Shown here: positions 6,001 to 26,800 of the stretch, one piece after another
Position numbering within the stretch: the first letter of the stretch is position 1
Layout: every line of letters begins with the position of its first letter
Source: Ascidiella aspersa
Taxonomy: Eukaryota
NCBI GenBank assembly: GCA_963924565.1
Contig: OZ004615.1
Location: 7,502,001-7,566,000 of the forward strand
DNA: 64,000 nt
Direction: 5' to 3'
Notes under the pieces: generated by a model
The model's database searches: none
Seen by the model: only the letters and a program-made list of their open reading frames with translations
What the model was told of the DNA's origin: nothing
Translations under genes and position numbers: made by a program

Positions 6001-8866
6001 AAGAAGTCTAAACAGGTATGGAATCCCAAATCTCGCACATTTGACGAGGTGGTTTTGGAAGTTTCGTCCGAAACGTCTAAAGACGAAAAACAAATCCTTT
6101 CACTGGAAAAAGACGAAGCTAAATCGTCTCCCCCTCAGGTAAAGGAACTATCTGCCGCTCAAGCAAAACCTGACACCGTAGTTGTTGGCATAAAACCCCA
6201 AGAGGATAAAGCCTCACCCTCGCCAGCCTCTCTGTATACAGTTAAGAAAGACACGCCTTTAACTGGAACTGAAACGCGTCCTACTGTCCCTCAAGAGTTA
6301 GATGCAGATAGTACACACGACGTTGTATCTACAATAGTCACACAAACGTACTCAGATGACAAGACTCTTTCCAGCAAGGACATGCATCGGTCGACTGAGA
6401 TGGCATCAGTTACCAGCCAGGTTTCTGTTCATACAGATGCGGGTTCGGCGGTTTCGAAAACCGTCCTTAAAACCAAACGAGTGTGGAATCCAGTCGCTGG
6501 GAAGTTTTTCGAAATTACCATTGAGGAACCGGTGCAAAGCGAAGATCACGATGAGCTTGAAGCAGAGAAACAGTCGCCATTATTTGAGGAAACCTCGCTT
6601 CATGGGCTTCCGACGACAGAAATGCAACATGAAAGCAAAGAAGATACACAAAAAAGTTCAAAACTCATGACAGAGAAGCCGAAACGAAGGGTGTCTTTTA
6701 AAGAAGACTTGGTCAGTGAGGAGAGCGACGAACTAAAAGATCGTGACGTCACGGAATCGAAAATGGTAGAAAAATCCAAACAGCCAAAGCTACCGACCGC
6801 AGCCTTAGAACAAAAAGAAGTTCAAATTAAAACATCAATTCCTGGTGAACCAGATACCGCAGTTGCAAAGGGCCAATCGCGACTAGCGACGGAGGTTAAG
6901 GTTGCTGAAACCGCAACAGAGGAAATAGTCAAAGTTAAGGTACGTGAAGAGGAAGTGGCCGCCAAAGTAAAACCAGCGTTATCTGTCAAGGGTAAGACAA
7001 AAATCTTGGATTCCCTCACAGAAGTAATGACAAGCAAACCGGGCGATGATACGCCGAAAAAAATAACGGACATACCAGATGTTAAAGAGGAATCAGAAGA
7101 GAAAATTGAGCCAAAGGACAGGGCGTCTCTTGTGAGCGGCTCTAGCAGCGACGACGTAACACCGTTAAATGACGAGTTTGCTAAAACCTCTATTAAATCT
7201 CAATATGATGATGTTCAACGAACTGAAAAACCAAAGATGGTTTGGAATGCAAAGACAAGGCAATTCGATGAAGTCACCGTTAAGGTGAAAGCTGCTGAAA
7301 CTGAACCTGAGAAGACCAAGGTAAAAACATCCGGTCATGTTAAAAAGGCGACCGATGTCGACACGGCTGAAAAGGCTGTTGTAGAAACCAAGAAAGAGGT
7401 TAAAGTGGCGAAACAGCAAATAAAGGATGTGAGCCCTGATACTACTGAATCAATTATTCCATCTGATCGGAAAAATAAGGAGAGTAAAGCCGAAGTCGCT
7501 GTTACACAATTTGAAGAAGAAAGTGTTGTTTTAACGAAAAAGGAGAGCGTTCGAGAGAAAGAAACCCAACCAGATGAACTTATTGCCCCTGAAACCCTTG
7601 ATTCGACGACCGTCAGCAAATCCCAGTCCGCTGAAGTTAAAATTTCTAGCGAAAAGTCAACAGTCGAAAGTGGCCAACATGTGAAAACCACAACAAAGAA
7701 AACTAAAATGACCTGGAACCCGAAAACTCGTCGCTTTGACGAAACAACTGTGGAAGAAGAGGTTGAAATCACTCTTCCGGTTGACAAAGATGTAAGTTTG
7801 AAACCCTCAGTTTTCACAGAAGCTACTCAGCCTGATGATATTAAAGTTATGACTTCTATTGAGGACATTAAAACTAAGCCCAAGGTGGTTGAACGTAAGA
7901 AAGGTATTGTGGAAAGAACGAAATCGCCTATTGACGACGACGAAGTGTTTGAGGAACGAGTTCGCACCAAAACAGAAAAGAGCGAGGAAAAAGTAAAGCG
8001 CGTTTGGAATCCCAAAACGAGCCAATTCGATGAAGTAAAAGAGAAAGGCTTTGACATAACCGAGTCGCGAGACCAATCCAAAAAAGACTCCAAGAAAAAA
8101 TCGATTGATTCTGACGATTTACTGGAGATGGACGTTCGTGACATTCAACAACCAGTCGTTACAACCACAATAAGCGATATGAAGCAAGGAGGTTTTGACG
8201 GTTTAGGTGACAGCTTTGCCTTCAGCAGCCATTTTAGCAGCACCAGTGAGAGCTTCGTGACCACATCATCGCAGGACGGTGTCAAGCGGACTGAGACAGT
8301 CAAGAAATCGACCCGGGTCTGGAACCCACGAACTGGCAAGTTCGAGGAAACTACATCAGAAGAGCGGCATTACGAAACTGAGGACCGTCGTCAGCAGACG
8401 CCGCAAGTAACCGAGAGGGAGCGTGAAATTCAAATCGATATAGAATCTGCGCCTAGAATTTTAAAGCCCGCCGATGTTGATCGTAGCCAGCCGCATGTAA
8501 CCGATGCAGAGCGCGACATTCCAATCGATGTCGAATCTTCGCATAAGGCCTCTATTGCGCCTGACGTTTCGCAGCCTCCTCTGTTCTTGAGAAACATCCA
8601 AGGCGAGACTGTGGAAGAAGGCTCCATGGTAACATTTAGCTGCAAGATAAGCGGTTCTCCATTGCCGTCCGTGCAATGGTTCGTAAAGGGAATCGAGATC
8701 GTGGCGCCCTGCGACGGTTTCACGCTGGTGTCGGATGACGACACCGGCGTATGCAACCTCGTGGTGCAAAATGCCAGTCTCAGTCAGGACCAGAGCAAAG
8801 TGGAATGCCGCATCGCCAACAATTGCGGCTCGGCTGATTGTAGCGCTCTGCTCCGAGTTCGAAAGA
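1..8866 (+). CDS. Giant titin exon (5' truncated): low-complexity T/E/K/V/S/P-rich repeats plus one C-terminal Ig
   Basis: Frame 1 open from base 1; Ig PPLFLRNIQ..FSCKISGSPLPSVQWF..ECRIANNCG..LRV; donor GTGAGT at 8867 (phase 1). Confidence 0.9.
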
Positions 8867-11800
8867 GTGAGTTTAACCGCGACATCCATCAATTCAAACT
8901 TCGTAACATATGCCGAAAACATATCCAAAAATGTCATAAATTTGAAATCACTAAGGCATATAATTTTTATCCAACTGATTTTTTAAGTAAAATGTCAAAA
9001 AATGCCCAGAAAATAAGTTAATACTATACATATTAAAACTAACTATTTTGTATTCGATTAGTGATTAGACAATACGAAAATTATCCGCTTCCATCTATCA
9101 CTTCATTATTATATTGGTCACAAAAACACAGTCATCTGGAAATAACCATCACTTTATTAAAACTTTGTCATTAACTCCTCAAATTTATACAGAAAAATCG
9201 GCCACGAAAAAAGAAGCGGCAAAGCACTTAGAGGTGGAAAAATTAAAGGCACCTGAGATTGTTAAGCCGCTTCAAAATCAAACAGTCGTCCAAAACACCA
9301 AAGTCGTTCTCGCGTGCGAAATAAACGGCCACCCCGCGCCGCGGGTTACGTGGTTGCACAACGGCCAGCCAATGAGAGGCCGCCACGTCAGGGCCGGTTC
9401 CTCGTCGATCCAATCGGACGAGCCGAGGACTGATTCAGTCATGAAGTTGAATCTGACTCTTGGGCGAGTGACTGACAAGCAAGCCGGCGTTTTTGAATGC
9501 CGGGCCAGCAACGAGCTGGGTACAGTTTCTACAAGCGCGACTCTAGTGGTGGTGGCTGAAAATACCGCTCTTCCGCCAGGTGGCGTTGTCACATCATGAG
9601 TGTTCCATTACCTAAGCTCATGCACGCAGCCATCGCCACTACGTTAGAAATAGAGAAATATAAGAGATTTGTACCGGTGTTGTTTACTGAAAAATTACAA
9701 GATTTATTTTCACTCATACTACATCATGTGTAACTTCACCTCACTGGTAAAGAATATCCAACTTTAATTTGTTCTCTTTGTCGATTCAGGGCTCTTCGAA
9801 TCACCTTTGCAACCAGAGGAGACTGAACAAGTTGAAGAAGGTAAGACGCACAAAAAACATAATCATTTGCAATCATTTTTAGGTATACACGAGTTTGTAG
9901 TTTTACCGCTGCACGTAGGCACATTTTGTTTACGGGTTTAAGGCTGCCCCATTTGCACCTGTGGTTGATACTTTTGCTATAAACAAAATCTGCCTACTTG
10001 CAAAACATTAAAGTTATAAAAACATGTCGCCATTTCATCACCTTTTCTATTCGCTTTGCGTTCTTATTGTTTCCTTTGCTTTGACTACTCTTTTTGCGAC
10101 GCTTTTCGCTTCTTTGATATCAGTTCGGTCAAGAGCAAGAGCAATTTTACAGGGTAAGTGGGGTATCCTTTCCTTTCTTTCTATCTTTGTAAACCTAGTT
10201 GATCTACGCTAGTTATTGTTAACGGTTAGGATGTTGGTCAAATGTGTTTTACCAGTGACAGTAGGTACTTGTTGTTTGTTTACTGATATAAGAACGCATA
10301 CCAAGTTGTTTAACGTTCGGCAGGTTTTTCGATGCAACAGTATGATTCCGATAATCAGTTGCACGTAAGAAGCTCAATGACTGGCAAAGAATTCACAATA
10401 CAAAGGTCGGAGGTTAGCCGCCTGGTCGGCAACTACATTACACAGTCGGATATTGACCCAAGTCTCACGGATATGCCAATTCTGTCGAGGTGAGTTTCCT
10501 TAAAAATTTCGCCTTTAATAATCCCCTTGTGTGAAAATTGAAACCAAACAAAAAGTATACGTTCGGTAAACATTAATATTATAATATGATGTATGGCATA
10601 GTTTGACACTTTATGATTTTTGGGACACTTTTATTTTTTATTTTTTCGTTGAATGATTTAATCATAATGCATCACGCGAATTTTCAGATTAATGAACAAA
10701 AAATGAGTAATTTTAAAGGATTTCCTTACAACCCGTTTTCTACAAAGTAGTAGTTTCTTATTGAAAATCTTTTCAGCGTTTCATTAAACCTTATTGAGAT
10801 TTGACTTACAGTATCCAAAAAATGTTCGGTGTCGATTGCGTTTTACAAGTCTTGATTGTTTTACAGAACGAAGCCAATAACAGAGCTGGACGACGACCTG
10901 ATAAGACCGTCCTTTATACAAAAGCCGAAACTGCAGTCGGTTCTTACCGAAGCACACGTGAGGTTCGATTGCCGATTTGTGGCCTCGCCTCGACCCAAAG
11001 TAATCTGGCTTCATTCCGACGCTGAAATCAAGGTAAGGGGTTTAAAACTAGTCTTAAACATCGGTTATAATAAATGTTGTATGCGGCTTATGTTTTGGAT
11101 CGCTTTTGAATAGTTGAAAATGGGCAATTTATTAATCGGTTATTAAGGTCCCCATAAATCGCGAATAATATTTAATAAATTTAAAAAATATGGCTGCTGA
11201 ATCTCTGGGGTCAAAACGCCAATTTTAGGCTCATATTTGATTTCAAATTTAAAAATTAAATAAATACAAACGCCTAAGACGTTGTAAATTTTTAAGACTT
11301 TCTAATCTATCGTACAATTTAAATATTGTCTAAGCACCCACTAAAACGAATACATCTAAATTCAGTGGCCCATATTTACAAAAAACAAAACTGACTAAAA
11401 TTTTAATTCTTTTTGCAGGCGACCAATACCCGTTACAAAAGCACCCTGGAGCGAGATCTATTCTCCTACCAAGCCTTCCTTGACATTGACGGGTGCCAGT
11501 CGGACGACGCTGGCATCTACAAAGTGGTGGTGCGCAACCGTGAGGGGGAGGCCAGTGCCTCTGTCCCCCTGCTGGTAACTGACAGGGCGCGGTCCCAGGC
11601 GGACCGGGAAAGTCCCGTGGGTGCGAGTGAGCCAAGGCCAGTGTTGAAGCTTAATCTGGACTCAACTACTGAAAGCGACTCCCCTGCTAAAACAGTTTCG
11701 GCCACTGGGATCGCGATTACACCAAGACAGCCTTACTCGGCGCGGAAGTATTATGAGCGGAAAGAACGCGAAAGCAGGTCTAACAACGTTACGGATCTGA

Positions 11801-14800
11801 ACCGAACCAGCAGCTCGTCGCTTTTACGATCCGGAGACATGAACCGATCGCTCTCGTCGCTTTCATCGCTCTCGTCGGCGTCGACGGGCGGGTCGCCGCC
11901 GCGCGAGAAGATCTCGCGACAGGGCAGCGACCCCGAAGCGTTCGAGTTCGAATCAGCGCCGAGAGCGAGCCGAGTCCAGCAAACGGCCGGATACGTCCGG
12001 ACACGGGAATCGAACCAGGGACTCGCGATCGGCATTGTGCGTCAGGCCGTTTCGGACCAGCAGTCGGTCACCACCGGCTCCAACTCGCACAGCAACACCA
12101 GACATTCGGCGTGCGACAGCAGCGAGTCGTCGCGGACTTTGCGCGAATCCTGCGGCGGCAATTCAAGGACCAAAAGCCAGTGCCGCAAAATGCCGCCTGT
12201 CGTGGTCGAACCTCTGCCGGAAAACGTGCGTCTAAACGCCGGGGAGCGTCTCCGGCTTTCTTGCGTGGTCAGCGGGCGGCCACGACCAAAAGTCCTCTGG
12301 ATGCGCGACGCCGAAGACCTCCAGAGCGCTCCCGGGTACTCTTTCGAAGAGGCAGAACACGCGTCGGCCGGCTGGAGCTACCTCCTGTGTCTCGGCGAGG
12401 CTCTTCCGGAACACTCGGGAACCTACACTGTGTCCGCGTTTAACCTCTACGGCGACGTGGCGAGCCACAGCCAAATTTTGGTGGTACAAAAAGGTAGAAA
12501 ACTGTTAATATTTTTGAACATTTTTTGCTTGTTGTGAACCTACAGCTACTGCGTGATGATAAGTTTGCATGTCGGTTGATTGTACTTTTATTTGCTTCAC
12601 ATTATATGAGGGTCATAAAGTTAGTTTTCCGTCAAAAATGTCAGGCTATTACCTATTTATTAACAGTAACGCCTAAAATGGACGCAATAAATGCGTTTTC
12701 AGTTGATTAGCTTTTTTCCAGACAATAGCATACATACTGTTTAAAATAAGACATGTTCTTAGGTTAATAAATGTTATTTCATAACTTTGGGAACATATAA
12801 TAATGTTGGCATGATATGGTTTGCTTTGATTTAAAACAAGAGCATCGTGTTAAGGTTTGAACAGTTAGTCATTTCAAGTTTGAAAAACCGATCTGCTGCA
12901 GTGCATTCTCACACCACTTTAACAAACACACTATAGAGTCGCGTTAAAAGTGTTCATCTTATCCGTTTTGCTACGCTTGCTATCTATGGGCGTTTACTTA
13001 TAAGCATGGATTGTATCTGCACCCGGACTTTTCCTATTCTCACCTGTTTGCATGCGGCCTGCCGGTTCTGCAACGCAAGTCGTCGACCAGGTACGTGTGA
13101 ATGCATGTGTACTTTCGCTTGCATAAAGCACGCGCGAAGTGCTTTTCGCTGTGTGGATGAGAATTAAAATTTCATGAGTCCGCCGCCGCGTCTTGAGCAC
13201 GCCCCCATGAATTCTTAAGGGTTTATTGGTATAAAGAAACGGCACGGGTGCCAGATTGATAACAGCAGTCTGCCATAAACGTTCGCTAAGAAGCTTTTTA
13301 ACTGTATTTGAAAGTTGTAAATTTGCTTTTGTAAAACGTTCAAGGGCCGGTTTAATCGTAAAGTTGGCGAAAAATCGCTTAAAGAAAGCGTAGATCAATA
13401 CGACTTTTAACATATTAAATACGATTATGAATTTTCAAAATTTTTTGACGGTTTTGTTTGGTTTTCGAAGTGTGCATTAAAAATGGGTCTCGTATTCTTT
13501 CTTTTTGATATGTTACTTTGACATTTCGCGGTACACGCGCTTAACTGTGCTTTCTTTATTTAGTTTCAGAGCACAATTGCACTTTCGACCTCGGCGAACG
13601 GGACGAATGTCAAGTGGCATCGATCGAAGAAAGCCAAAGCAAACAAACGGCGGCCGAAACAGCAACAGCAAAAGAAGCAGAAGCAAGTCAATTGGAAGCA
13701 ACTTGCAGCGAGGTCGAAGCGACGGGCGGCCACGTCAACGCTGCTGACCTAGAAAGTTTTCTTGGCGGCGATGCTGCGACGGACAATAAAGAAAGCGCAC
13801 AACTAAGGACGACTGACGTCGATGTTGTCAGTTGCACCGAGTGCGTAGATACAGAGGCGCGCGAATACGACATGGGAAACGGCATTAGGAAGGCTTTTCG
13901 TGGCGAGCGACAACGGGAAACAGCAGATGTTTGCGGCATGGAAAATTTGAAAACATTGAACTACAATGTCGTGATTAATAACAACGAACATGGAGAAATT
14001 AAAAAGAAGGGTTTCGACTTCGGTAGCGATGCTGAAAATGGACAAGAGGCAGATGTTGACGAATTCTCTCTCGATTCCGCATTCGAAACTGGGTTTTGCG
14101 AGGCAGCGGTCGACAGCCACGAAGAAGATAGCAAGTCCGACGTAGACACTACTCAGACTAAAGTTGAACGAGCGTCGGACTTCGAAGACAGAGAAAAGAC
14201 TTCTAATCGTGTTTCCGGTGATGCTGTTCGGGAAATTAGCTTAGAGTCGACGAAGGCAACAGTAACAGGATGTGATCAACACAGTATCAAAGACAATAGC
14301 CAACGGAAAAATCCTGAAGCCGCTATTTCTCCACAAGAAGTCGAAAATGGAGACACATCCGACAAAGCGACGGTAACAGAGTCGAACGAAGCGAATGTCA
14401 AAAATGACGTCACCGAGCCCCTCCGCTTCGTGAAGGAACTTTCCCCGGTCACGGTGATGGAGGGCAACACCGTCGAGCTCGAGTGCCGTACCTCGGGTCC
14501 AGTGGACAAGGTCACTTGGTACAAGAACGCCGAGGAGATTTTCGACGGGCGCGATTGCTACTTTCTGGGTTCGAAAGACGGCTCACATAGGCTCACCATT
14601 CTCGACTCGAGGTGAGATAAACCTTTCGTAACATTGTCTCGTATACAAGGGGCCTCCAAACGTCGCTGAACCAATAGAATTAACATGCACCTTATGGCGT
14701 AGCACAGTTTGCACGGGATGTAGAATTTTAATGAAATTTAAAAGGGACCTTGTTTCAATTGTCCCCACGGTGTTAATAACTCTGCGCAGAAGAAATACAG

Positions 14801-17800
14801 CAATTGGCAATTGGCCAAGTACGGTCGATACTAGTAGGAAGTAGAACAAAGATATATAAAATCGCACACAAAAGTTGACTTAAACAGATTAGTTTAGTAA
14901 CTGAGGCTATCTTAATGATGAACTTATTTAATAGTTTTGTTTACTGTCACAAAATCCAAGCCTAATAATCAACGTATTTATTCCAGATGGTCAGAGGACG
15001 AGGGGGTGTTCAGCTGCCAGGCCGAGAACGTTTCCGACCTAGTCTGCAGCACCACCGAAGTTTACGTCGAGCTACCCAAGGAAAAGTTGCTTCAGATCCT
15101 CAACCTGCGGGAACAAGAGGAGACAACGTCCTCTTCCGATAAGAAAAAAACCTCCACCATCAAAGCGCTGGAAAGCGGTGAAAAAAGCTCAGGGGAGACT
15201 GTTTACTTTTACCCGGACTCCAGTGTCGCTTGCCTTGAGTTTCAGCAGGACTTTGACGAAGACGAAGATGATTACTTGGAGCGTCGCGAGCTCTCGCCCA
15301 TATTGGAAGAGGACGAGGAAAACATGTCGGTGATGTCCACATCCACGAGGACACTGAGCAGTGCTCCTCTTCAACCGTCCATCAGGGTGCGGCGCGCGTC
15401 CTTCGATTCACTCCTGTCATTCGAGGCACACGAAAAACTGGCGTCATGCGAACTCTTAAATTCCGCTGCTCTGGCGCCTGAAGATCCTCCACAAGATGCT
15501 GGGTCGTCAGAGGATTCGGATGAGGGAAGCGACTCGCAGGAGAGAGCTTGCAACTCCAGAGCATCCAGCGCCTGTCGCCCGCTCTTATTTGGCTCCGACA
15601 CCGAATCCCTTGTTGGTTCCAGACCTGGTTCGGCCAACAGACTGCGAGCCGGATTCTCCAGAGTCGGAAGCAGGGGCGACAGCTTTGACCTCGAGATGTG
15701 CCCCGAAGTCGAAGAGGTGGATGCCGACGTCGAAGATGACGTCACATTCGACACGGAAAATGGTGACGTCACGAAAAATGGCAATGCCTATATAGACGAC
15801 AAACATTCAGTTTTCCAAACGCTTGTTCCACGTATACAAACGGACGATGACGTGATGACTGACGAGTCACAATATGACGTCAGTAACGAGAGTCGATACA
15901 GTAATGATGTCACAGAAGAAGACAAAAATACCGAAAACTTTGATGTAATGCAAAACGAAACTCAGTGCTTTGACAAAAAGCAAGATTTGGAAAATAAATG
16001 CGAGGCTACAAATCAAGAATCAAAAAACGAGTATGACGAAAAAGAAAACGATTTTGAAGATTATGATGACGTCGGGTCGGACACTGTCTGCAGCAGCTCG
16101 TGCGATTCGGAGCTGAACTTCGACGGCGAAGAATCTGACTTTCAAGAAGATGGTCACTGTGAAGGCGGCGCAAAACCTAGACTATTAGCAATGGATGCTC
16201 TTGCCCTTAACACGGCAAAGACTTGCGACGATTTGCAGTCAACCAGCGGTCTGGAAGTCAACGAAGACGACTTCCTAGGTTACAGACTGGTCTGTCGCCA
16301 GCGCGAGGACTCGGTGTTCGACTTGCAATCGCTGCATGAGCGTCTCACCAAAAGCGCCAGGGCCCTTCCGCAAAGCGAGCAGGACACCTCTTCTTCGGGC
16401 ACCATTGGCGACAATGCAACTGCAGCAAGCTTTGAAGGCGGACGATTTTCAAATGTCGTTGATTTAAATGGAAACGCAAGGGAGCACGTTGTCGTTGTTT
16501 CGACAAAACACGACAATTTGCCGGTCGTGATTTACCCAGCGGACAATAACAACAAACAGTTCGATATCACCTCCGCAGCTGACACCGCTGATTTCGAGAT
16601 CGCAAACGACAACCTCAATTTGACCAAGTTAATTCGGCTAGGCGAGGCAGCCTTTGACGTCATATCCAGCGTCGACGCCGATTTCCACTCGTGCGTGTCG
16701 TCCAACACCGCGACGCCCACTTGCGGATTTCGCACAGACGAATGCCCCTCCGAGGCCGGGTACGAGACACCGCCCGAAGACGGCTCTAAATGGATCACAA
16801 GTGGGCTTAAGTACTTCGAAACCAGTCAGGGCGTCACTTCCGACGATAAAGACTCTGTGTATGAAGAGTGCTCGACGCCGGTGAACTCACCCGGCCAGTC
16901 GGATCTGACTTCAGTCACCGCTTCTGGTTTCGTGACCCCGCCCAAGTTCTACTACGTCATACCGCCCAAGTTTCTCGGCAAGAAGTCGGTGCAAATCTCG
17001 GTGGTGCGCGGCGGCACGGCCATCTTGGCCTGTTCCGTGATCGCCCATCCCGAGGCCAAAGTGGCCTGGTATAAGGACGGTAGGCTGATGGACATTTACA
17101 ACCGCATTTCGCAGCATATTAGCAACGAGGCGCCACAGGAGTGCCTGGAAGAGCACGGTGACCTCCTCTCATGGAGTCCTCCCTGGCTTCCTGTGCAGAG
17201 AGATTGCGACATCGGCTGCCCGCGTCAGCTCGACGTCCATTACGTACTGAAGATAAAGGATGTTTTGCTCAAGGACGAAGGCGTTTATATTTGCAAGGCC
17301 TGGAACGCGGCCGGGGTTGCCACGCGGATCATAAGACTCGATGTGAAATAAAAACGGAGCCAGTCTAAACACTTGGAAACTTGCATGCTGACTTTTTATT
17401 TTAAAAAATTTATTATTGCGTTTTGTGTGTTTTGTAAAAATATCATTGTGATTCCTTAATATATATATATTGGGACTGTTTTTTTACTATTAAAATTGAC
17501 CACAAAGCATGATATCTTGTTTAGGCCCAGTGTGGAGTGCAATATCAGATTGATAAACCGTTAATAACTTATAATGCTGTATTTCATTTCCTTGCCCAGA
17601 TTCGCTCAGTAGCAGTTTGGACGCGGGTTCGGTTACTTTAGAGGAAAGCGGTTTCTACCAGCATTTCGAGCAGAAGTCAGCGACATTCAGCGAAAGTGAC
17701 CAGTCTCACAACGTTCTGTTCAGCCAGGCCGCCATGACCATGAAAACACAGCGCTCATCGCTGCGCGCCAAACCCATCTTTCTGCGACCTCTATGTGACG

Positions 17801-20800
17801 TCACTGTGCAGGGCGGCCAATCGGCGACGCTCTCGGCCGAAGTCCGTGGCATTCCGAACCCTCTGATAACCTGGTTCCACAACGGCCACGTAATCCGAAG
17901 CGACGAAAACTACCGCTACGTGAAACAGGGAGAAAAGCACCAGCTGGTGGTTCCCCGAGCGAGCGTGAACGATCAGGGCATCATCGGGTGCAAAGCGACA
18001 AATGTGTTGGGCGAATCCACCAGCACTGCTAAGTTAACAGTGCTCGAGTCCATTTTAGAAGGAATCTCGTCGGACTCGGAGCTCAGCGTTGCGCTGTTCG
18101 ACGATTCCTCAATGAACTTAACGGTTGTGGACAGTGTTGAAAGATCTAGAGACTTAACTGCCAGCGAGCTGAACGTGACAGGCGACAGTAAAGTTTCCTT
18201 TGCTGGCTCGTTGTTGATGCAGAACAAAACTTACTCCGAGGAGTTTAGCTTCTCCAGCTTGCCACTCCCGGAACAAAGCGACGGCGTTATTTCCGAGATG
18301 GACGCGTACGGCAATATTTCCGATCAGACCTTGTCCAGTCAACGCGAATCGTTTATCAGCCAAGTTGACGCAAGAACTGATCAAACAGCGAAAAGGTCGA
18401 TTCTAAAGAAGAAGAAGCGCGTCCACATAGAAAAGCGCAGCTTCGGTTCAATGACCGAGAATCTAGTGGAAGAGTCGGCATCTTTGGTCCAGCAAAGCTG
18501 GACCGAGGAAGTGCGGAAAATCATCCGAGAGGAAATGGAGCTGAGAGACGAAAGGAGCCGAGAACTGCTGATAAAAGAATCGAAACAAGAGGATAACACT
18601 CATGCCGATGGAGTTGAATCACTTCCGGTCGCCCAACCGCCGAAATTTGCCAAGGCCATTTCCGACTGTGAAGTATTGGCGGGCGAAACTGCCCACTTTG
18701 TCTACATCCTCGACGCCAGCGCACCGGCGAAGGTGACCTGGCTACGTAACGGTGCCGAAATCGCGCTTTCCCGTGACCCTGCAAACACAACCGACGACGT
18801 GTTTTCGGCGACCGACGGAAACCTGGGGATCATATGCGACGATGAAGCCGGGTGCCTGGTGATCAGTGAAACCGGCCCGAAACACAGCGGGGTCTACGCT
18901 TGCTTCGCTTCCAACGAACATGGCAGCACAAAATGCAGCGGCCGGCTTGTTGTACACGGCGCTCGGAAGCAGCCAAACCTTTCCACGCGAGACGCAGGGA
19001 CATACATAGCAGAGGAGAGCAACGCACAGACTCAAGTGTCAACCCTAGTGGACCAGGAGTCTCAAACCCGAGAGAGTCGCTTGCTGATTGAGGAAGATCA
19101 AATTGAGGTCGCGTTTAAGCAGCTTGAATACGCCGAAAAGTCGCGAGCCGTTTCCGAAGTTATCATACCCTCTTCCTCTCCTCCGCCGCCGAGAGATCCT
19201 CCAACTGATAGTGATCTCAGGAGGAGGAGGAGGAAAAAGAAGAAGAGGCGTGATGGCGACTCGGTCGAACAGAACGTGGGAAGACTGGACGACTTCGAGA
19301 CCGGTGAAGGTTTGAAATGGAGCACCGCTTTAGCGAAGGCAGATTGTCATTGGCATGACTCACCTTGTATAGAAAAAGTAAATTACTCAGCTTTAACGAG
19401 TAAGATCACAGAGGTCTTGGCTCAAATTGCAATGCATTATAACCCAGCAAGAGACAGCACAGCACAGCACAAAATGAGTATAGTTTGTTATGAAAGCACT
19501 TTACCACCATAACCTATACTTGCACTTTACCACCATAACCTATACGTTACAGCACTGATGCCTGACTGTGAAATTAACAACATTCAGGTCTCCAAACAAA
19601 AGGTTAGCTTTACGGCTTAAGCATGTTACCACTTTCTAAGTTAACACAACTCACTTTTATTTCAGTACAATGGAATTGTGTCTAGAGCACTGATTGCTTT
19701 GGCGGTAGTGGCTAGCCTAAAATGGCACCACGTTAAGGTTAGATTTTACCACGCGACGCGCACATATAGGTTACTATAGTTTCGGCTGTTGACTGCACGA
19801 ACCGCACCGGCACACTTCTGATACTTCAGGTGTTGTCACATGTTATAAGGCACCATTTGCACCTTTCTGTGATGCGAGAAAAGCCTACTTTGAGAACTGC
19901 ACTGATGCACCGCTTCGCATTGATACTGTAATTGTTTGATATAAACCGCGTTTCGTTTAAAAGCCCTTCTAACCATCGATAAATTGCTTTACAGAGGAAA
20001 AGCTTCAGCCGCCTGCATTCACTCGCAAGCTGACTGTGACCAAAGCCCGACCGGGCCAAAAGGTTTGATCTCACATTGCATATGCTTATATTTTTGCTAA
20101 AGTTATCCAATGGTTTTTTTGTACCACATCCTGATTACATTATGTTATATTACATTTGGCTATTGGTAAAAACATATAATCTTATAGAAGTATGTCGTAA
20201 TATAAAGATAAAACAATGCGCTTCATTTTTTTGTTATCCTAGATCAAAATAGAGACAGCTTGTTAAATGTTTTGAAATCAAAATGTTTTGTTTTTTAGGC
20301 CAAGCTTTCGTGCACACTGACTGGTTCATCCCCGGTCCAAGTGCAATGGTCACGTGACGATACACCGCTAGAGCATGACGAAACTCGCTACGTCATGAGC
20401 ACCAACGAAGCGGAACCGTTCCTTGAAGTGCGCGAAGTTTCGTTCAGGTAAGCTGCGATAAGTTTCGGCTACAATTTAAAGTAATTTAACTCGACAAGTT
20501 AAAATTCATAATTCCAATTCGTACAAAGAAAGCCTAAAAATTAATAAATGTTTTCTGTACAAAAATGTAGCAAATTTAAATTTATTTTGATGTATTTAGC
20601 GACGCTGGAGAATACACAGTGACCGCTACAAATGTGGCCGGCAGCGCCTCCTGCACAGCGTCTCTAGTGGTCGAAGGTCGGTGATGACGAAATCGACAGT
20701 GACGTCACAGCCACGAGCACGCGTTTTGATTTCTATGTTCGGTCCCAGGAATGCTGCCTTGCGTTGCCGCTTGCTGTTTTACAAAGGGCCTTCGACCTTT

Positions 20801-23800: not shown

Positions 23801-26800
23801 TTCCCTAACTATTCTCTTAGTCTTTTAGGCACTTTCAGTTAATCTCCACGTCCATTATTATTTTTTATGCATTGACAATTCAATGGTGAATTTTGTTGTG
23901 TTTAGATGCATCGCGAGAAATAGCGGAGGTGAGGCTTCGTCTCAGTTCGATCTCAATGTGGTCGACGACTACGTGACTGAAAAAATGGACCAGACAGAAT
24001 TGAAAAAGTAAGTGCAACTAACTGATATCCAATAAATCTGTTTGCCAATGCCGATCACAAATTTCAAAATGGTTCGCCTTAAATAACCCTACTCTGAACC
24101 CAGCTAATTCTCCCCTTAAAAACACATTCGCAGAGCACCGGTGAAGGAAAAACAAGTCAGTGACATCGAAACTATCAGCGAGCTGCTGAAGGAAGTGGAC
24201 CCCAAAGAGTACGAAAAATACGCCCGGCATTACGGAATCACCGACTACAGACAACTGCTTTCCCATCTGGAGGAGATGCAGGCTCAGGAAGAGCCGGTAA
24301 ATAATCACCCTTGGCCCTACAGGATAATGTGTATTTTGCAGTGTCCAGCAAACCGTACTTCACATAAGAAAATATATTGATTTTCTATTGTTAAATTGTA
24401 ATGAAGATTATTAAACCGCTTCAAAGAGTCAAAGTCTTGATCCTAACGCTTTACGATTTCAGAAATCGGTTGAGACCGAAGCCGCTGAAGTTCACGACCT
24501 TTACAAGCTGATGACCAGGAGCCTGTCCATCTCGGAGCCGGTCAAGGTTCTCCGCGACCTCACCAACGTCAGCGCCCCGATGGGTGAGGAGGCGCGCTTT
24601 GTCACCGAGCTCCAGATCAACGTTCCAGGAATCGAAGTCAACTGGTTAGTCTAAAAGACGACATTGTTTAAAACAAACTGCTGGTATACACGTAAAAATT
24701 TAATGCGAGTATTTAAGGCCAGGTACGAGTTTAAACACAATTGGGATACTAATACCCGAGTAGCCTGATACAAATGTGACCGAGTAACAAACGTACCGTT
24801 AGTGCTTGCAATTGTTTTATAAACACTGTGCAAATTTGTACTATTGCAAGCGTTAATTGGCTTTTGTAGAAAAGGAATTTGTACAGCTATCTTTCTAAGT
24901 TGGTCAAATAACCGATGTAAACAAATGCCACACAACCGATTCGAGTAGCCTAAGTAATATCCCCTACCTTTGTACAATACACTACTGCTTCGTATGTCTC
25001 CAGGTACCGGGGAAACGAGCGCCTGCACGACTGCAGCAAGTTTGAGCTCGTGCACGACGGCACCATGTACCAGCTAGTGATCAAGAACATGACAGAGGGG
25101 GACGTCGGCGAATACCGCGTTGTTGCCGGAGCACACTGCTCCACAGCCAGCCTAACGCTGTCAGCACCACAAGGTAAAGCCCTTATTGAAGTATTTGCGT
25201 GTTAAATCATTAAATTCGAATTCAGATGTGATTAAGTATACACAAGAAAATAAATCGAGCAACAGGTTTTCATTTTTTGGCCCTCGGTGCTTTTAACGAA
25301 TTTTATCGGTGCTACGAATTATCGATAAATAACAATAGTGTAACATCGAAAAGGCGCCTAAAAATAAAAAAAAAACTTGGTGTTGCGCTTTTTTAAGCAA
25401 AAGCAGCCGAGTCGATTCCTCCCACTGAGGTAAAACCAAAGACAGTGGACAAAGACGAGTCGCCGGTCGTTGCAGTTAAGACCGCAGCCCAGGAGGCAAC
25501 TCAGTCGCTGCCAAAACGCAAACCAGTGATAATGCGGGCTAAGGTGGTCCCGGCCGCCACTACCACCACATCGAAGGACGTTCTTGTGACTTCTAACAAA
25601 TTAAAAACGGTTGAGAAAACAACGCTAGAGCATCTCCATGTGCTTGCTGGCGATGGCTCGGAGCCTCAGCCAACCACTTCGAAAGCGGCTAAAGAACCCA
25701 TTTCGAAACCCGAGGAGGCTGCTGCTGTTGATAAAGATACGTCGACTGCGGTAAAACCAGTGGCTGTAGAGACAGAAGTGGATGGGGCAAAACCGAGGAG
25801 CAGTCCAGAAGCTGCCAAACCTAGTTTGCGTGAGTGTGACACGGTCACCAGTCTCACCCAATACACCACTTGTCATCTCAGCCCTAAACAATTCGGCGTA
25901 AATTATTCTTACCAAACACTTAATCAAACAAACCAAAAATCAGTCTTATTTTTTTAATGGTTTCACTTACCCATCTCCATATTTCATTGCCGCTCCTCGA
26001 CCACAGTCAAAGTATAATCGCTTCTCTTTTTCTTTCATCCGCAGTGAAATTTACAAAGCCGCTGGAGTCGCAGCGCGTCCAGGAGGGCCAGGACGCGACC
26101 TTTGACTGCGAGGTCAACCTCAAGGAGGCAAAGGTCACCTGGCTCAAGGGCGAAGGCAAGTTGCGCAAGTCGCGCAAGTACGAAATCTCGTCGAGCGACG
26201 TAGACAGCGCACCGGGAGCCCGCCATCAGCTGGTCATCAAGGACATGCGACCCGATGACGAGTGCTCAGTGTCGGCGCGCGCTTCGCACGACGAGTACGG
26301 CGATGACGTCACATCGGCCAAGCTGGAATTTTCACCGGAAGGTTGGTCTTTGCGATTTGACTGCGAGATATTAATTTCACAGGTTAAGCGTTTTAGAGAA
26401 ATCAGTGGTCATGCACTGATGTATGATTTACAACACTACAATTACTTTTATTTTTCTTTCCTCAACCCTAAAATTCATCGAATCATCACTCATTTTTTCA
26501 CGATTCTTTCAATACACAAAATCTCGCGCTAAACCGTTAAAACACGAGCAGTCTTCGTGAAGCCCCTTCCCGCCGACCGGAGCATTCACGAGGGCGAGGT
26601 CGTGACACTCGAGTGTGAGCTCACGAACCCGGATCACGACGTGATCTGGCTCAAGGGCGACCGGCGCATCTACCCCGGCTCCAAGTACACCATGGCGCGC
26701 AAGGGCTCGCTTCTTAGCTTGACCATCCACGAGCCGGTTAAGATGGACGAGGCGGTGTACTCGTGCGCCTTAAAGCACAGTCCAATGCGCAGATCCTCTT

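Follow-up and report, generated by a model that had tools for sequence, protein, structure and literature searches.

Based on our analysis of a 64,000-nucleotide (nt) stretch of Ascidiella aspersa DNA (contig OZ004615.1, positions 7,502,001 to 7,566,000; "the window", in whose positions coordinates are given below), which lies in a titin gene, we propose that the exons at 13564-17351 probably form the alternative end of a short titin resembling vertebrate Novex-3, and that the cysteine-rich "leader" at 13006-13090 is likely non-coding intron sequence that regulates splicing. A preliminary description had instead joined this leader to the same exons as a self-contained unit nested inside titin, with a possibly lipidated or metal-binding N-terminus. 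Our reading is carried by a join from 12493 to 13564, an open frame through a block of five exons, a conserved stop and the position of the block in the gene. The picture would be completed by polyadenylation at 17347, a link to the Z-disk exons, control by Rbfox, a scaffold role and docking of the Pin1 type on Thr-Pro motifs.

The two large exons at the end of the block are genuine, and splicing attaches them to the titin exon before them. We used five sequencing runs: two look like DNA (X1 and X3), X4 has few reads, X2 is of unrecorded kind, and X5 is stranded RNA, selected by its species label, of which about 6% was read and in which a joint call needs 3 reads. An X2 contig (depth 4.8) contains a GT-AG joint from 12493 to 13564, the only joint listed. 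The acceptor at 13570 assumed in the preliminary description is indeed in frame, but the joint seen uses 13563|13564, 6 nt earlier and also in frame; tandem in-frame acceptors lie at 13561-13569 (TAG at 13563, CAG at 13569), the first being the one used. The only junction seen into exon 13564 comes from the upstream titin exon, not from a leader. In Ciona, the partial RefSeq model XP_078489334.1 joins the homologue of 11419-12493 straight to the homologue of 13564 without a leader, and the Phallusia protein CAB3262861.1, which we take to be a transcript-derived record, makes the same join, also without a leader; both stop after the last Ig domain. The joints listed for the DNA runs X1, X3 and X4 do not have GT-AG ends, and we ascribe them to assembly or to repeats.

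When joined, the five exons give 4820 nt with an open frame of 1605 amino acids and four Ig domains; aligned with the 1513-residue Phallusia protein, this model shows 707 identities in 1687 columns. Extended upstream, the gene model keeps its open frame as far as window base 1, and each of its 7 introns is bounded by GT and AG. An 18-kb contig from a more distant relative (L002) has the same five exons, open for 1340 amino acids, without the third Ig domain: in its homologue of exon 13564 (L002 5750-6191), the Ig domain is lost while frame and phase are kept. A weaker match, L003 (E 4e-6 over 42 residues), was left out of the comparison. The junction that splits an Ig domain after exon 4 is identical in the homologous proteins P0001 and P0015. 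The stop lies 19-25 residues past a CKAW motif in the window and in all 11 non-redundant homologues (a count that omits P0005 and the cluster duplicates P0009-P0014, and in which many members are open reading frame [ORF] calls on genomic contigs); since this spread is so tight, we regard it as a true stop. The stop and poly(A) signal of its own that had been described within titin are present, an AATAAA at 17347 overlapping the stop, and in L002 an AATAAA likewise lies over the last codons, at 8399.

The linker of the terminal exon carries short conserved motifs, including two Thr-Pro-Pro and one Ser-Pro-Ile. The last Ig domain is predicted to adopt an I-set fold (pLDDT 72) interrupted by an insertion of low confidence; this insertion, of approximately 35 residues (~17110-17230), holds a semi-conserved Trp-x-Pro-Pro and a DIGC motif in most homologues. 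At the other end of the block, a 45-residue non-Ig stretch within 10326-10489 hardly varies among three species and matches nothing in Pfam; it is a likely binding motif. No close PDB match to the first Ig domain of the block was found, and matches to obscurin and hemicentin were rejected because their scores were sums of generic Ig scores.

The gene in the window is ascidian titin. Named relatives of the terminal exon come from Ciona intestinalis and Phallusia mammillata, the remaining homologues presumably being ascidian as well, and Ig arrays followed by Fn3 arrays lie downstream of the block. The gene is single-copy as far as the genome shows, the last 233 residues of the protein having a match at one place only. 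A bird titin fragment (P0056) maps onto the 80 kb upstream of the window in a largely colinear order, from its first Ig domain at -47 kb to the last proximal Ig domain at -8.2 kb relative to the window, where identity is 51% (E 9e-13). Among single-domain PDB chains, the first Ig domain of exon 17600 is matched best by human titin I21 (8OVU, 57 bits vs 48 for Z2), which we take to be the first Ig domain of the N2B exon. The block thus sits after the last proximal Ig domain and before the N2B-like and N2A segments, where vertebrate titin has Novex-3; the human order is proximal Ig exons 29-47, Novex-3 exon 48, N2B exon 49 and N2A (PMC11040099, PMC5852582). The acceptor at 17600 can be joined in frame to the phase-1 donor at 9840 as well as to that at 12493, which allows the whole block, or just its final two exons, to be skipped. 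From its size and place, exon 9790-9840 is a possible counterpart of vertebrate exon 47 (45-57 nt). The features are listed in the table below.

Features of the window bearing on the short titin end (positions in the window; L002, contig from the more distant relative)
Feature	Position	Strand	Remarks
In-frame titin exon ahead of the block, 51 nt	9790..9840	+	48 nt in L002; in-frame splice to 10324 or 17600
Block exon 1	10324..10489	+	80% identity to P0015; conserved in L002; Phallusia protein begins in its homologue
Block exon 2, first half of an Ig domain	10867..11032	+	77% identity to P0015
Block exon 3	11419..12493	+	Phase-1 donor; homologous in P0001, P0015 and L002
Intron between block exons 3 and 4	12494..13563	+	1070 nt, 5 GCATG
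Proposed Cys-rich leader	13006..13090	+	ATG, 28 codons, donor CAG|GTACGT; without support as a coding first exon
Block exon 4, with an acidic linker and the first portion of an Ig domain	13564..14611	+	Acceptor seen in a sequencing contig
Terminal exon	14987..17351	+	Rest of Ig domain, acidic linker, last Ig domain, stop
AATAAA overlapping the stop	17347..17352	+	U/GU-rich sequence after it; candidate poly(A) signal
Next exon of full-length titin, N2B-like	17600..19512	+	Phase-1 acceptor; end taken from the ORF
Homologue of the N2A unique sequence, a landmark downstream	24174..24281	+	7NIP human titin, E 3e-11

What had been described at the leader is correct as far as the letters go. The ATG at 13006, the 28 codons with 5 Cys and the phase-1 donor at 13090 are all present, and joining 13006-13090, 13570-14611 and 14987-17351 does give 3492 nt and 1163 amino acids with one stop and two Ig domains (Pfam I-set). 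The richness in cysteine does not, however, stop at the proposed exon: besides the Cys at residues 3, 5, 14, 19 and 22 (there is no Gly2), the same frame stays open beyond the donor as far as 13167, where 25 further codons hold another 5 Cys, making 10 in 53 codons, compared with 2 and 3 in the other frames across this stretch. A count of 5 Cys in 28 codons occurred in 214 of 6419 shuffles of local composition. The leader has no relative in 5.8 billion proteins, Pfam, Atlas (best 0.76) or its own genome, its local alignments to four homologues are not significant (p 0.15-0.81), and no protein with this C-terminus (432-3935 amino acids, among those found) starts with such a leader. Conservation of the 28 codons, proposed as a check, was not found: the L002 intron has six donors matching 7 of 9 positions, none with more than 7 ATG-led phase-1 codons, so the frame is closed there. 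L002 is distant, and a young exon would be compatible with this result.

A junction from 13090 to 13570 had been the other check. None is listed, and reads cross 13090 unspliced, at low depth. Besides the joint-bearing contig, X2 has four further contigs within the intron (depth 2.3-4.4), which could be pre-mRNA or DNA; one of them, 12884-13206, begins 120 nt upstream of the proposed AG and passes unspliced through both this AG and the donor. X5 gave 38 reads over 11300-18200 and 14 over the 1440 nt of 12419-13858, all in sense orientation. Its bins over 12995-13234 sum to 302 bases, or two full 151-nt reads, and the bin depths would place these at ~13008-13158 and ~13053-13203, both unspliced across 13090. 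Depth in X5 is approximately 1.1x across intron 12494-13563 and zero in intron 14612-14986; in the RNA seen, the former intron is often unspliced. Neither a joint from 13090 among the 14 X5 reads and 5 X2 contigs (a weak absence, given the 3 reads needed) nor a loose end at 13005 in reads over 12419-13858 was found. Elsewhere in the block, the join 11032-11419 is seen, and 6 RNA reads carry the end of exon 10867-11032 as a loose end before 11417.

The intron island around the leader is not ordinary DNA, in line with the preliminary description. Its flank is GC-richer (0.43-0.50 over 12894-13293 vs 0.28-0.38 in the rest of the intron), and the TGCATG copies at 13049 and 13102 are there, although a third at 12566 had been overlooked. 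GCATG is the Rbfox motif. Its 5 copies in the intron are matched by only 0.5% of shuffles (at least 5), and the 8 copies in the 1619 nt of the L002 counterpart by 0.14%, while the rest of the gene has 0.6-0.7 per kb. The two introns have no significant DNA similarity under 5 scoring schemes (p 0.19-0.81); a colinear likeness noticed by eye between 12940-13060 and L002 5313-5430 was dropped because it did not beat shuffles at the whole-intron level. Run X1 has no variant in 12939-13359 vs 82 over 6901 nt (approximately 5 expected by hand count, with the caveat that long contigs are biased towards invariant DNA), and no variant occurs either in X2 (12884-13206) or in X4 (12945-13157). The island thus looks constrained. 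A splicing element would explain the motifs, the constraint, the retention and the incidental Cys codons together.

We suggest a plausible mechanism for the two titin ends. After the proximal Ig domains, the pre-mRNA would either enter the block 10324-17351 and be cut at the AATAAA, or skip to the phase-1 acceptor at 17600 and continue through N2B and N2A into the A-band. Anchored at its Z-disk end but too short for contact with the thick filament, the short protein would serve as a scaffold at the Z/I junction, with the conserved Ser/Thr-Pro motifs as candidate phospho-docking sites. The GCATG cluster may bind Rbfox and slow or gate the splicing of intron 12494-13563, and the TGC/TGT-rich letters of the GCATG-rich island would be read as Cys by accident.

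Several points weigh against this reading. A profile search of 1.84 billion proteins returned no vertebrate Novex-3 among the best 150: approximately 12 family members were followed by generic Ig proteins only, the best non-family domain score was 38 bits vs at least 251 within the family, and the compared proteins included no Novex-3 sequence. Rbfox binding is a candidate role suggested by the motif, and the invariance of the island would suit a coding exon no less than a regulatory element. At this depth, no read joins exon 9790-9840 or anything earlier to 10324, and there is neither a poly(A) read nor a pile-up of ends after the stop; with RNA depth so low (14 X5 reads in 1440 nt), a rare 13090 junction would escape detection, and one X5 fragment begins at ~13008, the sole RNA hint for the leader model. 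A donor matching 8 of 9 positions together with an ATG-led phase-1 frame of at least 28 codons arose in 0.64% of 5000 dinucleotide shuffles; looser versions arose in 2-22% (2.2% for at least 10 codons, 7.4% for a 7-of-9 donor), the thresholds were chosen post hoc and this is one intron among dozens in titin, and so the rarity is suggestive only. Finally, the codon score, which speaks for our reading in that the leader ranks lower than 325 of 326 coding windows and lies within the intron range (18% of 130 intron windows score as high), was trained on a Cys-poor gene.

The alternative that survives best, though we consider it unlikely, is a nested mini-titin that starts at or before exon 10324, with approximately 1600 residues and four Ig domains; it is compatible with a Novex-3-like end. 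The Phallusia protein has only 5 residues ahead of the part homologous to exon 10324, and its extent is exactly that of the block; the donor at 10153 is conserved in L002 along with 40 nt downstream (p no higher than 0.005 in 4 of the 5 scoring schemes). Against this, the Phallusia start shares a Glu-Gly junction with the 51-nt exon and the record may be 5'-truncated, and donor 10153 has a clean acceptor 30 nt upstream and would thus bound an in-frame micro-exon. This candidate micro-exon, 10124-10153 (L002 ~1690-1783), follows a long polypyrimidine tract; should 9790-9840 be exon 47, it sits at the place of vertebrate exon 48'. What looked like a hydrophobic leader beginning at an ATG at 10024 was rejected, being the polypyrimidine tract of the 10124 acceptor.

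A different role for the leader, which we hold to be rather improbable, is that of an 86-nt frameshifting cassette, 13005-13090, whose inclusion would lead to a stop near 13750, so that the short-titin message would be cut or destroyed, an effect described for vertebrate exon 48'. The AG at 13003-13004 and a strong donor do bound 86 nt, inclusion shifts the frame, an Rbfox-type motif lies 12 nt past the donor, and such RNAs would be rare if degraded; vertebrate exon 48' is 85/100 nt, frameshifting and located within a ~1.1-kb intron before Novex-3 (PMC5852582). The AAG acceptor is weak, however, with no junction seen on either side, the L002 intron shows no significant similarity under any of the schemes above, and exon sizes point rather to 9841-10323 as the counterpart of intron 47.

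Equally doubtful is a broader proposal, in which an internal start (13006, or before 10324 as the Phallusia record suggests) and a Novex-3-like end would yield a free-standing mini-titin without a Z-disk or A-band anchor, possibly membrane-bound via a lipidated leader, and the block would date Novex-3 to the tunicate-vertebrate ancestor. Very unlikely is its specific form, in which an internal promoter or spliced-leader trans-splicing at 13004 produces a minor or tissue-restricted mini-titin of 1163/1165 residues with a Cys-rich lipidated or metal-binding N-terminus. The ATG with its open frame and a correctly phased 8-of-9 donor, the invariance of the island in other individuals and the RNA fragment starting near 13008 would fit it, and internal titin promoters exist, as in Cronos (PMC4720518). 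What speaks against it, in addition to the missing junction, the unspliced passage through the donor, the X2 contig start upstream of the AG and the absence of a homologue, an open L002 frame or a similar protein start, is the putative acceptor itself: it is the only one of 11 scored acceptors with A at -3 (AAG), and its surroundings are 62% AT before and 46% AT in the 100 nt after, whereas trans-splice sites in Ciona are described as AU-rich (PMC11155486). The TATAAA noted at 13230 is present but lies downstream of the leader exon. A free 53-residue, 10-Cys micropeptide (13006-13167) encoded by the retained intron is barely credible: the Cys bias of the frame and RNA reading through the donor would suit it, but it has no relative in the protein, Pfam, Atlas and genome searches and needs a 5' end nearby.

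Some further observations concern other titin ends and springs in this region. The frame of exon 11419 continues to a stop at 12535-12537, with AATAAA at 12686 and 12766 and a read pair at 12563-12754, and a still shorter titin end within intron 12494-13563 is possible. Upstream, an open frame of approximately 4250 codons, from -3872 (in the neighbouring stretch L004) to 8866, is rich in Lys, Glu, Thr, Val and Ser, has a recurring motif resembling WNPKTRxFDE and contains an Ig domain at its end. After N2A there is only a short ORF rich in Pro, Glu, Val and Lys (25397-25957), a very small PEVK-like spring.

Among known systems, Cronos titin resembles the proposed leader in having an intronic start and a short ATG exon spliced in frame (PMC4720518). 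Unlike Cronos, which runs to the M-line, the product here stops at 17349-17351 and would end in the I-band, and Cronos is backed by chromatin data, rapid amplification of cDNA ends and morpholinos, whereas here no start or junction is seen in 14 reads and 5 contigs. TTN exon 48' is likewise a small frameshifting cassette (85/100 nt vs 86 nt) lying within a ~1.1-kb intron before the terminal exon (PMC5852582); it is, however, conserved and proven by reverse transcription PCR, whereas the 86-nt candidate was not seen in RNA, is not conserved in L002 and probably belongs to another intron.

The closest relative in design is Novex-3 (TTN exon 48). Human Novex-3's first Ig domain may resemble the Ig domain at 10867-11570. 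Like the block, Novex-3 carries a stop of its own that lies after the proximal Ig domains but ahead of the N2B exon (PMC5852582, PMC11178842, PMC13649281), its Ig domains are spaced by long unique linkers, and its product cannot reach the A-band; its C-terminal region in human binds Pin1 (PMC13649281). The vertebrate form is a single exon of 6.1-8.0 kb, whereas the block has five exons and 4.8 kb, the last of its four Ig domains has a long insertion, and a 12.7-kb open frame lies further upstream. The literature searched describes Novex-3 from jawed vertebrates only; among the papers listed it gave no report of a tunicate Novex-3 (the 2012 Ciona connectin study was not covered) and no match to two Novex-3 peptide motifs. 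By analogy, then, the block may work like Novex-3, with five exons in place of one and no tool-based sequence match between the two. Drosophila kettin, the short isoform of sallimus, is also a short titin-like isoform of the Z/I-band and has been named as the functional parallel of Novex-3 (PMC13649281); its gene architecture is different, and we liken it by description only. The function of Novex-3 is still debated, and Ciona would permit a cheap knock-out of a compact end with its conserved motifs mapped. If the block is truly a multi-exon equivalent in the same slot, a short Z-disk titin either predates the vertebrates or arose twice.

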